DNA of 64,000 bases from Legionellales bacterium (GCA_002707205.1 PAMH01000013.1:65523-129522), one strand, 5' to 3'. Positions 47,568 to 50,889 are shown, counted from the stretch's first letter. The notes: a model not told the origin generated them from the letters alone. Program-made: numbers and translations.

Positions 47568-48728
47568 GTGAGTTTTGATATGAAGCAGCAAGATGAGAAA
47601 AAGCTTAGCTTGGCGTTAAAAGCTTACCGCCAAGGTAATGTTGAAAAAGCAAAGTCATTATTAGCTGAATTAGTAAAAAGCTATCCAGATGCAGCGGTAC
47701 CTGTACACTATCTAGGTATTTGTTTATTTGAGTCAGCGCAACAAGAATTGGGGTTGAGCTTACTGGAAAAATCCTTATCACTATCTAACAATAAGGCCGA
47801 TTTTTTGCATAATACGGGTTCTTTATATTGTATTCACAAGCAGTATTCACAAGCACTAAGATATACGCAACAAGCTGTTTGTTTATCGCCTCAGAATATT
47901 ATTTATCTTGGTACATTAACTAAAATATATTATGAGCTGAAACAGTGGAAAAAAGCTAAAGAAGTAGGTTTGCAATGCCTTACTTATAAAGATCAACAAG
48001 CAAATTTAAAACATCAAGAAAAATATCAAACCTTTCAACTGAAAAATATTGAAAGTCATTGTGGTTATCAGCCTAATGATACGAATATTATAAGTTTTAG
48101 TTTATGGGGTAATGACCCTTTATATACGCATGGTGCAATTATTAATGCCATGATAGCACCTTATATTTATCCTGAATGGAGAGTACGCTTTTATGTTGAT
48201 GACTCCGTCCCCCAAAAAATAATTAATAAATTACAAACTTATGGGGCTGAAATTTTAACAGTTAAACAAACAAAAAAAAATTACCATAAACTTTTTTGGT
48301 GTTTTTTGGTTTCTGATGATGAAAACGTTACGCGATTTATTTGTAGAGATTGTGATTCAAGATTAAATGTGAGAGAAAAAAATGCTGTGGATGCTTGGGT
48401 AAGTTCAGGCCAACTTTTTCATATCATGCGAGACTCCTATATGCATGCAGAGTTAATTTTGGCAGGTATGTGGGGGGGAACTTCAGGCGTATTACCTAAT
48501 ATACAGCATATGATTAGTGCGTTTTACAATCCATTTCATGAAAAATGGATAGATCAGACATGGCTTGCTCACATGGTTTGGCCTATAATTAAAAATAAAA
48601 ATTTAACGCATGATACTTACTATCAATATCATCAGGGTGAAATATTTCCAGAAGATTTATATCGAAAAGATGCGGTTAATATATCTTGCGTAGGGAGTAC
48701 AGTTAGAAATGATTTGGAAAGGCTATAA
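47568..48728 (+). CDS. TPR-repeat protein with C-terminal GT-A-like (DxD) glycosyltransferase-like domain, paralog 1
   Basis: ~150-aa N-terminal TPR region, then IISFSLWGNDPLY (hydrophobic strand + WG as in GT32/toxin-type GT-A N-termini) and FICRDCDSRL (DxD). Confidence 0.5.
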   Translation: MSFDMKQQDEKKLSLALKAYRQGNVEKAKSLLAELVKSYPDAAVPVHYLGICLFESAQQELGLSLLEKSLSLSNNKADFLHNTGSLYCIHKQYSQALRYTQQAVCLSPQNIIYLGTLTKIYYELKQWKKAKEVGLQCLTYKDQQANLKHQEKYQTFQLKNIESHCGYQPNDTNIISFSLWGNDPLYTHGAIINAMIAPYIYPEWRVRFYVDDSVPQKIINKLQTYGAEILTVKQTKKNYHKLFWCFLVSDDENVTRFICRDCDSRLNVREKNAVDAWVSSGQLFHIMRDSYMHAELILAGMWGGTSGVLPNIQHMISAFYNPFHEKWIDQTWLAHMVWPIIKNKNLTHDTYYQYHQGEIFPEDLYRKDAVNISCVGSTVRNDLERL

Positions 48729-48747
48729 AAAAGGTTAATAAAGTAAT

Positions 48748-49698
48748 ATGTCTAAGCACATAAAGGTTGGAATTAGTCGATGTTTATTGGGTGATAAAGT
48801 TCGATTTGATGCAGGTCATAAAAAAGAAGCGTTCATTTGCAATGTATTATCACATTATTTTGAGTTTGTTGCTGTCTGTCCTGAAGTTGACATTGGCTTA
48901 GGTATACCTCGAACGCCAGTGAGATTAATTGGGGATGTTAATGACCCTGAGTTAGTTAATACAAAAGATGCTAGCATTAATCACACTGATAAAATGAAAA
49001 ACTATTGTGATAAATCAGTTAACACATTAACTCAACTTAGTGGTTATATCTTAAAATCAAAATCTCCAACTTGCGGATTATTTCGGGTTAAGGTTTATCA
49101 AGAAAAAGGTATGCCCAGTTATAATGGGCAGGGTATTTTTGCTAAAGCCTTAGCAGATAAATATCCTGATATGCCAATTGAAGAAGAAGGACGTTTACAA
49201 GATCCTATGTTGCGTGAAAATTTTTTAGAAAGAGTTTTTATTTATTGGCGTTGGCAAGAAATGTTAAAAAGTAATTTAACAAAAGTAAAACTTATTGAAT
49301 TTCATACACAACATAAGCTAACGATTATGGCACATAGTCCACAATTGTATCGTGAATTAGGTACGATGATAGCTAATTTAAAATCAGTGAATTTAAAAGA
49401 TTTTTCAAAAAAATATCTGAGCTTGTTGATGTATGGATTGAGAAATTATCGTGCAACCAAAAAGAAAAACACTAATGTTCTTCAACATATTGCTGGATAC
49501 CTAAAGAGAAAAATATCCTCACGAGATAAGCAATATTTACAAGATATTATTGATAAGTATCATGCTGGAGATATTCCATTGATAGTACCTATAACCTTAT
49601 TACAGTACTTTTTTAAAAAACATCCTGATGATTATATTGCTGAGCAAACTTATTTAAACCCCTATCCCGGTGAGTTGCGATTAAGGAATTTATTATAA
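48748..49698 (+). CDS. DUF523 (TudS-like 4Fe-4S family) / DUF1722 fusion protein (YbbK-like)
   Basis: N-terminus KVGISRCLLGDKVRFDAGHK...CPEVDIGLGIPR carries the Cys pattern of DUF523; the C-terminal ~120 aa is DUF1722-like. Confidence 0.65.
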   Translation: MSKHIKVGISRCLLGDKVRFDAGHKKEAFICNVLSHYFEFVAVCPEVDIGLGIPRTPVRLIGDVNDPELVNTKDASINHTDKMKNYCDKSVNTLTQLSGYILKSKSPTCGLFRVKVYQEKGMPSYNGQGIFAKALADKYPDMPIEEEGRLQDPMLRENFLERVFIYWRWQEMLKSNLTKVKLIEFHTQHKLTIMAHSPQLYRELGTMIANLKSVNLKDFSKKYLSLLMYGLRNYRATKKKNTNVLQHIAGYLKRKISSRDKQYLQDIIDKYHAGDIPLIVPITLLQYFFKKHPDDYIAEQTYLNPYPGELRLRNLL

Positions 49699-49746
49699 TA
49701 AATTTTAACTTTTGTAAAAGACGTTATTGAATAATTAAGGAACAAT

Positions 49747-50889
49747 ATGGAGATGACTGTTGCTGATGCTATTGAAATGGCATTAAAAGCAATTAGAGAA
49801 AACCAATTTGAACGTGCTAAAGAAACATTATTACAAGTAATAGCGCAACAGCCAAACAACGCAACAGCCATTCATTTTTTAGGTATGTGTTATTATCACT
49901 TAGGTGAGGTAAAAAAAGGAAAACAGCATTTTGAGCGGTCATTGACGCTTGAGCCTGAAAATCTAGATTTTTTACATAATTTAGGTTCTTTTTATATGCA
50001 AGAAGGTCATTATAGTCAGGCACTATTTTATTTACAAAAAGCAGTTACCTTAGCACCGGAAAATTTTCTCTTTTTAGGTAATTTAGCAGTAACTTGTCAA
50101 AAACTTAATAAAACAAAGTTGGCAAAAGAGGCCGGTTTAAAATGTTTACAATTAAAAGAACAACAAAGCACTGATTATTTCCAAAAAAAATTTCAAACAA
50201 AATTCAAATTAAATAACTTACCAATAAAACCAGGTTATCAGAAAAATGATTTAAATATCATTGCATTTAGTTTATGGGGAGATGACCCACTATATACGCA
50301 AGGTGCCATTATAAATGCTATGATAGCACCTTATATTTATCCTGAGTGGCGCACAAGGTTTTATGTAGATAATTCTGTTCCAGAAGTTGTTATTAAAAAG
50401 TTAAAGCAATTTGGTGCACAAGTAGCCGTATTTCCTCATCCAAAAAAAGGTTATGCAAGATTATTGTGGCGCTTTTTAGTTTCAGATGATAAATCGGTAA
50501 CAAGGTTTATTTGTCGCGATGCGGATTCTCGGTTAAATATACAAGAAAAAATCGCTGTTGATGCATGGGTAGCGTCTGGAAAGCCTTTTCATTTGATGCG
50601 TGATGCTATTGTCCACTGTGAATTAATTCTTGCAGGCATGTGGGGTGGTGTTGCTGGGATTTTACCAAATATGGTTGAAATGTTTAATGTTTTAGAAAAC
50701 AATCAACATGAAAAATGGATTGATCAGGCATTTACGCGACAAATCTTATGGCCATTGATAAAAGATCAATGTTTAGCTCATGATCATTATTACCAATTTT
50801 ATAATGCGATAGATTTTCCACCTCACGGTCGGCGGCACGTTAAAAGTCATGTTGGCGCAATTGAATCTTGGGATTTACAGCGTTTATAA
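49747..50889 (+). CDS. TPR-repeat protein with C-terminal GT-A-like (DxD) glycosyltransferase-like domain, paralog 2
   Basis: Same architecture and ~50% identity to 47568..48728: IIAFSLWGDDPLYTQGAIINAMIAPYIYPEWRTRFYVD, FICRDADSRL, LILAGMWGG. Confidence 0.5.
   Translation: MEMTVADAIEMALKAIRENQFERAKETLLQVIAQQPNNATAIHFLGMCYYHLGEVKKGKQHFERSLTLEPENLDFLHNLGSFYMQEGHYSQALFYLQKAVTLAPENFLFLGNLAVTCQKLNKTKLAKEAGLKCLQLKEQQSTDYFQKKFQTKFKLNNLPIKPGYQKNDLNIIAFSLWGDDPLYTQGAIINAMIAPYIYPEWRTRFYVDNSVPEVVIKKLKQFGAQVAVFPHPKKGYARLLWRFLVSDDKSVTRFICRDADSRLNIQEKIAVDAWVASGKPFHLMRDAIVHCELILAGMWGGVAGILPNMVEMFNVLENNQHEKWIDQAFTRQILWPLIKDQCLAHDHYYQFYNAIDFPPHGRRHVKSHVGAIESWDLQRL

Follow-up and report, generated by a model that had tools for sequence, protein, structure and literature searches.

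OGT, SPINDLY (SPY) and the bacterial OGT-like enzymes of family GT41 carry an N-terminal superhelix of tetratricopeptide repeats (TPRs), followed by a cytoplasmic glycosyltransferase domain, and FlmG, which we take to be another TPR-guided protein glycosyltransferase, can be likened to them. Glycogenin (GT8, PF01501), the Skp1 α-galactosyltransferase (Skp1 GalT) and UGGT have a GT-A fold and act on proteins or glycoproteins, in the case of glycogenin on itself. A TPR module and a domain of GT-A fold occur together in the products of two paralogous genes, A and B, in a 64,000-nucleotide stretch of DNA from a Legionellales bacterium (GCA_002707205.1, PAMH01000013.1:65523-129522), which is called the window below and whose positions are counted from its first letter. 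The two proteins are very probably glycosyltransferases. Tentatively, they are read here as TPR-guided cytoplasmic GT-A enzymes whose usual acceptor is a secreted surface protein, the two copies having diverged in partner recognition. Enzymes of both kinds, GT-A glycosyltransferases and protein glycosyltransferases guided by TPRs, are already known; their combination, the family to which A and B belong and the link of this family to type I secretion systems (T1SSs) are undescribed in the libraries and literature searched.

Each of the known systems resembles the family in some features and differs from it in others. The GT41 enzymes share the order of TPR superhelix and catalytic domain, but their catalytic domain is a metal-independent GT-B, whereas the family has a single GT-A domain with a DxD motif. 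The similarity of the models to OGT and SPY stems from the TPR part (TMq 0.3-0.4, root mean square deviation 7-13 Å), and neither protein matches the GT41 GT-B domain (PF13844) in Pfam. The GT8-type enzymes share the fold, with 3t7n_B as the best structural match, and in glycogenin the DxD also follows β4, within what appears to be the same order of β1-loop, basic residue, DxD, glycine-rich strand, DQ and C-terminal His. They differ in that no sequence relationship is detectable, the TM-score is only ~0.6 and none of them has a TPR module. The clostridial toxins (GT44), Lgt (GT88), SetA and GT32 are likewise retaining GT-A enzymes with a DxD motif and protein acceptors; GT44, GT88 and SetA, however, are host-directed toxins of restricted distribution, while the family here is pan-bacterial. 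HMW1C and TibC/Aah glycosylate type V adhesins, and HlyC acylates RTX toxins, before export. In these systems a dedicated modifier is encoded beside its substrate and exporter, an arrangement that would have its counterpart in the Verrucomicrobia operons and in the LapG-LapD-adhesin locus described below. They differ in having GT-B or acyltransferase folds, and the glycosylation cases serve type V secretion. The literature searched contains no description of the glycosylation of a type I substrate by an adjacent GT-A enzyme.

The TPR module and the GT-A domain

The two proteins are 51% identical (193 of 375 residues, BLASTP E 3e-142) and have the same architecture, as the initial annotation had recognized from the sequence. 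The shared blocks that it quoted are present in both copies: FSLWG (aa 177-181 in A, 174-178 in B), RD[CA]DS (260-264 and 257-261) and LAGMWGG (298-304 and 295-301). In both proteins the Pfam matches are to TPR repeats and lie within the N-terminal ~140 aa (aa 7-133 in A); NCBIfam likewise matches the TPR part only. In the full-length AlphaFold2 (AF2) model of paralog B (pLDDT 95.3, pTM 0.91), eight helices form four TPRs (aa 5-119), which are followed by a long capping or linker helix (aa 123-148). A Foldseek search with this model finds consensus and designed TPR proteins and the TPR parts of OGT and SPY, with SPY and OGT at the top of the PDB matches. Since the full-length search is swamped by the TPR part and is uninformative on the catalytic domain, a domain-only model was used instead.

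The domain-only AF2 model of paralog B (pLDDT 90.1, pTM 0.90) is a single Rossmann-like α/β/α domain with a central mixed sheet and, as modelled, the C-terminal domain has the GT-A fold. Foldseek returns 142 matches in the PDB at E<=1e-3; the listed top 50 comprise GT-A enzymes (glycogenin, GpgS, UGGT and Skp1 GalT) and IspD nucleotidyltransferases. The top match is glycogenin-1 (3t7n_B, E 9.9e-7, TMq 0.60); 6mw5 and 5y7f are also listed. The glycosyltransferases among these nearest solved structures are presumably retaining enzymes. In BFVD, viral members of the family come first, followed by GT8, GT2, GT6 and GT32 proteins, a GT32-annotated viral protein standing at rank 35 (E 6.5e-5). The proposal of a TPR module joined to a GT-A domain is thus borne out by the Pfam repeats and by a confident model with the DxD in its canonical place. 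The more specific assignment to the GT32, clostridial toxin or Lgt-SetA type is not, since the domain has no Pfam match at E<=1 and no toxin, Lgt, GT32 or SetA chain is found among the 50 best PDB matches; fold recognition leads to GT-A with glycogenin at the top. Glycogenin is the nearest fold by model comparison (TM ~0.60), and membership of GT8 or of any other named family is not established.

At the level of sequence, the C-terminal ~215 aa have no match in Pfam at E<=1, PF01501 included, and none in NCBIfam, so that the profile searches give the domain no family at all, of glycosyltransferases or otherwise. Searches of the PDB sequences with phmmer (single sequence) or with the family profile return nothing below E 0.39, the best PDB match of the profile being the A64R glycosyltransferase of PBCV-1 (E 0.83). 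Alignment of the family profile with glycogenin by hhalign gives a probability of 0.16% with the single sequence and of 0.20% with a 16-sequence vertebrate profile; the glycogenin-seeded homologs listed (120) are vertebrate glycogenins only, which is too shallow for a good GT8 profile.

The active site can be outlined from a family alignment of 79 sequences, in which the invariant residues include R257, D258, D260, E267, W274, H282, D286, G297, W299, G300, D326 and Q327 (numbering of B). Both window copies retain all 13 residues that are invariant in this alignment, the DxD among them. In the model, the DxD of B lies right behind a β strand (253-257), at the C-terminal end of β4, which is the canonical place in GT-A enzymes. 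A basic residue is found 16 positions before the DxD both in B (R242-D258) and in glycogenin (K86-D102; sequence verified as PDB 3t7m_A). The order of the motifs appears to map onto that of glycogenin, with FSLWG corresponding to FVTLTTND, R242 to K86, LAGMWGG to FNSGVFV and D326-Q327 to D163-Q164. The hhalign alignment, which is not significant, pairs FSLWG with the FVTLTTND-AY loop of glycogenin, both being β1-loop motifs, and FSLWG is predicted to be the nucleotide-binding loop.

The two copies have diverged unevenly, with 41% identity in the TPR regions and 64% in the catalytic regions. Identity at third codon positions is 0.45, which is near saturation and indicates an old duplication. 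The GC content at third codon positions (GC3) of both copies equals that of the neighbouring genes, so there is no sign of recent acquisition. No signal peptide or transmembrane segment is visible in the translations of A and B when they are read through. Metagenome contigs from TARA Oceans contain the same locus with the same gene order and a copy B protein identical to that of the window. In these contigs copy A is called from ATG 47580, and because of this call and because GTG 47568 sits inside a likely ribosome-binding site, the ATG is more likely to be the start of paralog A.

Paralog pairs are found in other genomes as well, among them that of locus L039, and in each genome with a pair either copy has the other as its best match, which implies recurrent duplication or co-evolution of the copies. 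In the metagenome-assembled genome (MAG) of another Legionellales bacterium (L002, PAPY01000001.1), the two copies lie directly in tandem (8840-9985 and 9995-11143), without an intervening gene. The upstream copy has FDLPDN in place of FSLWG, RDPRSR in place of RDxDS and VMRTNMWGG in the LAGMWGG region; judged by these motifs, it is likely to be a pseudo-enzyme alongside an intact copy.

Distribution of the family and its gene neighbourhoods

With the catalytic domain of paralog B as query, a word-indexed search finds 183 homologs, none more than 55% identical to it and all either unnamed or labelled 'TPR repeat protein'. A profile search of 1.84 billion representatives yields 7,097 clusters (at 50% identity) at E<=1e-3 and 5,336 at E<=1e-10. 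The fold is clearly GT-A and the DxD is invariant, and yet a family of more than 5,000 clusters has neither a Pfam or NCBIfam model nor a characterised member, which makes it a sizeable blind spot in glycosyltransferase annotation. The representative genomes of GTDB contain 297 confirmed loci; the counts of hosts and gene contexts given here refer to the best 80 of these, and the clustering of neighbouring genes to 81 loci. The best 80 loci belong mostly to Rhodospirillales, Azospirillum and Rhodobacterales, and the rest to Verrucomicrobia, Pirellulales (Planctomycetes), Chlorobi, Gallionella, Methylococcaceae and Marinomonas. Their hosts are thus largely free-living Alpha-, Beta- and Gammaproteobacteria, Verrucomicrobia, Planctomycetes and Chlorobi. 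The closest relative in a genome, at 44% identity, is that of the Legionellales MAG.

The family is not confined to cellular organisms. Members from giant viruses and one tailed phage are found in BFVD, with 23-30% identity and TMq values of 0.69-0.86: A0A481Z110 (Mimivirus LCMiAC01; TMq 0.86, 28% identity), A0A076FI77 (Aureococcus anophagefferens virus), A0A481YR41 and A0A6J5KP94. In some relatives the domain is fused to a sulfotransferase, an S-adenosylmethionine (SAM)-methyltransferase, a GT41 (OGT-type), a GT2 or a GT9-like domain, and some have two copies of it. The members with fusions or double domains are P0130, P0129, P0160, P0202, P0254, P0190, P0185 and P0121-P0126, with the GT41 fusion in P0254. 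These fusions group the domain with enzymes that build or decorate glycans, including, in P0254, a protein O-glycosyltransferase.

The recurrent partners of the TPR-glycosyltransferase (TPR-GT) genes are T1SSs and giant adhesins. Such a context is found at 23 of the 80 genome loci and at four of eight metagenomic loci, where the chance level for a random gene is roughly estimated at ~1%, and it spans roughly nine or ten independent lineages when Rhodospirillales is counted as one event. In Verrucomicrobia (L030, L049 and L073), genes for a giant adhesin, the TPR-GT, an ATP-binding cassette (ABC) exporter and its HlyD adaptor follow each other on one strand, with gaps of ~40-850 nt. The adhesin has 3,264 aa with 28 Cadherin_4/Big_9 repeats and also Cadherin_5, the ABC protein is of the LssB type (TIGR03375, 841 bits, above the curated cut-off) and the adaptor matches TIGR01843. 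T1SS ABC and HlyD genes lie within 0-4.5 kb of the TPR-GT gene in a Rhodospirillum sp., in Methyloversatilis, in a Methylococcaceae MAG and at L044. In Pelodictyon (Chlorobi, L022), two T1SS-type ABC genes lie ~1.8-3.5 kb away, with no HlyD detected at the locus. In 13 Rhodospirillales MAGs, a repeat protein of ~3,250 aa begins ~220 nt downstream of the TPR-GT gene; in one of the 13, a sulfotransferase-like open reading frame (ORF) lies just upstream. Such an ORF, as noted at L004 5′ of a TPR-GT gene that adjoins a giant adhesin, hints at sulfated glycans. One metagenomic clade has LapG (Peptidase_C93), LapD and a 1,610-aa LapA-like adhesin, followed by the TPR-GT. Both the retention module (100.8 bits) and the T1SS_VCA0849 C-terminal signal (52.6 bits) of this adhesin are above cut-off. 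RTX or cadherin-repeat proteins adjoin the TPR-GT gene at L088, L091 and L092.

No LPS (lipopolysaccharide), capsule or EPS (exopolysaccharide) locus surrounds a homolog in the ~90 contexts examined. The initial annotation had argued from the lack of such a setting against a cell-envelope role. The lack holds across these contexts, but the many homologs within type I secretion and giant surface-adhesin loci make the argument doubtful. In Rhodobacterales, large ORFs that closely precede the homologs were considered as adhesins and rejected, as they encode AcrB-type resistance-nodulation-division (RND) pumps. Two of the neighbour clusters, c2 and c8, are apparently spurious high-GC antisense ORFs that overlap the family gene and have low-complexity translations.

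A small ORF is located between the TPR-GT and the HlyD or fused double-ABC T1SS genes in Methylococcaceae (L031, 3408-4166) and in Methyloversatilis (L026, 8060-8881). The former is weakly GT2 (PglI-like) and the latter is its homolog by BLAST clustering (c59). By this similarity, the ORF would be a second glycosyltransferase in a T1SS-linked block that has been kept across two classes.

Proposed function and its alternatives

Each gene would encode a soluble cytoplasmic enzyme. Its four N-terminal TPRs would bring in a protein that serves as partner or substrate, and its C-terminal GT-A domain would move a sugar from a nucleotide sugar in a DxD-dependent, hence metal-dependent, reaction. The transfer probably keeps the anomeric configuration, because the nearest glycosyltransferase structures are all taken to be retaining. 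The acceptor would be a secreted or surface protein that is glycosylated inside the bacterium prior to export. Such an acceptor appears the most likely because the recurrent partners elsewhere are LssB-type T1SSs and giant cadherin-like, RTX or LapA-like adhesins; in the window's genome it would most plausibly be a type I-secreted adhesin encoded elsewhere in that genome. The TPR fusion, the lack of a visible signal peptide or transmembrane segment and, in relatives, the presence of GT41 and sulfotransferase domains in the same protein fit an acceptor that is a protein or a glycan on a protein. A and B probably differ in their acceptors or act one after the other, since the invariant catalytic residues have been kept while the TPR part is more diverged.

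If T1SS adhesins are indeed glycosylated in this way, the making of biofilm adhesins such as the LapA-like proteins would include an extra modification step, the substrates of type I secretion would have a dedicated protein-glycosylation system, and the TPR-guided design of OGT and SPY would have a GT-A counterpart. A broader proposal is that the proteins form an uncharacterised glycosyltransferase family, absent from Pfam and NCBIfam, with the cytoplasmic glycosylation of type I-secreted giant adhesins as its ancestral role, the TPR module reading the unfolded substrate and two specificities being present here. This proposal, taken as a whole, is somewhat doubtful.

Several observations weigh against the proposed function. 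About two thirds of the family loci have unrelated housekeeping neighbours, as in Acinetobacter baumannii, where the gene sits between recN and ppnP, at L085, L086, L090 and L093, and in Rhodobacterales, where an RND pump adjoins it. Being close relatives of each other, the Rhodospirillales loci count as roughly one event. The 64-kb window has neither an LssB-type T1SS nor a giant repeat adhesin, and the nearest relative locus, in the Legionellales MAG, is also without T1SS context. Pfam, NCBIfam, the PDB profile search and hhalign provide no sequence-level tie to any characterised glycosyltransferase family. In place of the HVG of B and of the family consensus, paralog A reads CVGS (aa 374-377). 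The activity is predicted from sequence, model and context, and the literature searched includes no paper on the family and no glycosylated T1SS adhesin modified by a TPR-GT of this kind.

The acceptor might not be a protein but an attached glycan, a lipid-linked sugar or a small molecule, in which case the only task of the TPR module would be to dock the enzyme to others in an assembly. LPS cores and polysaccharides are common acceptors of GT8-like enzymes, and the GT2, GT9-like, sulfotransferase and methyltransferase domains to which the domain is fused in relatives are typical of enzymes that elaborate glycans; the weakly GT2-like gene that adjoins in L031, with its homolog in L026, is of the same kind. 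We regard such an acceptor as rather unlikely, since none of the ~90 contexts places a homolog within an LPS, capsule or EPS locus, no membrane anchor is visible and the N-terminal TPR plus glycosyltransferase layout is like that of the protein glycosyltransferases OGT and SPY, with one relative fused to a GT41 domain. Catalysis may also have been lost from one or both copies, leaving a TPR scaffold or pseudo-enzyme that regulates or chaperones a partner. One of the two tandem copies in L002 has indeed lost the FSLWG, DxD and LAGMWGG motifs, and the consensus His of HVG is a Cys in paralog A. This His is not invariant, however, being Tyr or Phe in some members, and the retention of all 13 invariant residues in both window copies makes a non-catalytic role highly improbable.

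The initial annotation favoured protein-glycosylating effectors, which in a Legionellales bacterium would be translocated by a Dot/Icm-type system to glycosylate eukaryotic proteins, in the manner of Legionella Lgt1-3/SetA or of the clostridial toxins. The organism appears to be an intracellular member of Legionellales, the best genome match comes from a Legionellales MAG, and the window has several large K/N/E-rich orphan ORFs without a Pfam match, one with an SV40-like nuclear localisation signal and another with a possible bi-lobed hydrophobic hairpin. The paralogs have duplicated and diverged in the TPR part, and they share the retaining-type GT-A fold with Lgt and the clostridial toxins, which belong to the same broad class. 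What makes host targeting improbable is the distribution of the family, which is pan-bacterial (297 GTDB loci, the best 80 listed) and lacks the restriction to host-associated bacteria that marks Dot/Icm effectors: its more than 5,000 clusters are found mainly in free-living taxa, namely Rhodospirillales, Azospirillum, Rhodobacterales, Verrucomicrobia, Planctomycetes and Acinetobacter. In addition, relatives in T1SS and adhesin operons point to a bacterial acceptor, no Pfam match at E<=1 and none of the 50 best PDB fold matches links the domain to the catalytic domains of the toxins, Lgt or SetA, and the genes, with GC3 like that of their neighbours, stand in a dense row of housekeeping genes from dedA to arcA. 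The window's genome therefore advises caution in labelling a TPR-GT of a Legionella-like organism an 'effector', as the family is ancient and bacterial. Of the acceptors considered, a secreted surface protein of the bacterium itself accords best with the gene neighbourhoods of the relatives.

Genomic setting and other features of the window

The window has a low GC content (~33%) and appears to span the chromosomal origin region. The sign of the GC skew flips near 36-38 kb, where the GC content reaches its minimum of 27%. Of the genes identified with Pfam, gyrB, recF, dnaN and dnaA lie on one side of this point and are encoded on the minus strand; yidC, mnmE and those for the F1Fo ATP synthase belong to the plus strand, with yidC and mnmE on the other side. 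Positions ~36000-38000 are the probable chromosomal replication origin. The ORFs at 40987-45315 resemble mnmG, rsmG, parA and parB, as read from their translations alone. Both paralogs and the gene between them (Table 1) are tightly packed on the plus strand, with a DedA/VTT membrane protein (Pfam) on the 5′ flank.

Table 1. Positions of the two paralogs, of their domains and motifs, and of the gene between them
Feature	Position	Strand	Basis or remark
Paralog A, TPR + GT-A-like	47568..48728	+	386 aa from GTG 47568; 382 aa from ATG 47580
Paralog A, C-terminal GT-A-like domain, aa ~168-386	48069..48728	+	Family alignment; all invariant residues present
Paralog A, RDCDS motif, DxD = D261, D263	48345..48359	+	R, D, D invariant in 79 sequences
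TudS-like (PF04463) + DUF1722 (PF08349) gene, 316 aa	48748..49698	+	Pfam E 9e-37 and 2e-38
Paralog B, TPR + GT-A-like, 380 aa	49747..50889	+	ORF list; Shine-Dalgarno AAGGA upstream
Paralog B, TPR module	49759..50190	+	Pfam TPR_2/TPR_8/TPR_1 E 1e-15 to 1e-18; DSSP of AF2 model
Paralog B, GT-A-fold domain, aa 164-380	50236..50889	+	Domain-only AF2 model, Foldseek
Paralog B, FSLWG motif, end of strand β1	50266..50280	+	Strand 170-176, then helix 181-197
Paralog B, RDADS motif, DxD = D258, D260	50515..50529	+	Directly after strand 253-257 in model
Paralog B, LAGMWGG motif, G297, W299, G300 invariant	50629..50649	+	
Paralog B, IDQ motif, D326, Q327 invariant	50719..50727	+	Order and spacing recall GT8 DQ motif

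The gene between the paralogs was correctly described as a DUF523/DUF1722 gene; PF04463, formerly DUF523, is 2-thiouracil desulfurase. It has no counterpart beside any of the 81 other loci, the family itself being the sole window protein that clusters in the comparison of neighbours, and it is treated as an incidental neighbour. Only 26 nt past paralog B begins an arginine deiminase pathway cluster (50916-55499). It consists of genes for arginine deiminase, ornithine carbamoyltransferase and carbamate kinase and ends with a 469-aa membrane ORF; the names of the three enzymes come from Pfam matches of the identical counterpart genes in the TARA contigs. Promoter and terminator scans of 45.3-56.5 kb gave scores no better than those of shuffled sequence. 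Because no better-than-chance terminator lies between them, the cluster may share a transcript with the paralogs.

The sole tripartite exporter of the window (1357-5839) was considered as an LssB-type T1SS and rejected, being of the MacB/FtsX type. A 994-aa polytopic membrane protein (6209-9193, minus strand) has an unusual architecture, with HEAT repeats and a C-terminal cyclic-nucleotide-binding domain; Pfam has nothing at E<=1e-4 for its transporter part. A 432-aa Asn/Lys-rich orphan ORF (45534-46832, minus strand), without a match in Pfam or NCBIfam, adjoins the locus on its upstream side. Its C-terminal part has an SV40-like nuclear localisation motif, SPPNKKRKLNHG, by which it is a candidate for a eukaryote-directed effector of the nucleomodulin type. 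Two other orphan ORFs on the minus strand (24693-30095 and 21454-23070) have no Pfam match. One encodes a 1,800-aa protein rich in K, L, N and E, and the other a protein of 538 aa in which a long hydrophobic stretch, VIAVAAFTVGFLMAASTYVALASTGVGIIPAMTLAMSVTGFLLVALSV, lies close to the C-terminus and possibly forms a bi-lobed hairpin of the kind found in vacuole-membrane (Inc-like) effectors. Taken together, the orphan ORFs suggest that this marine Legionellales-like organism lives inside cells.

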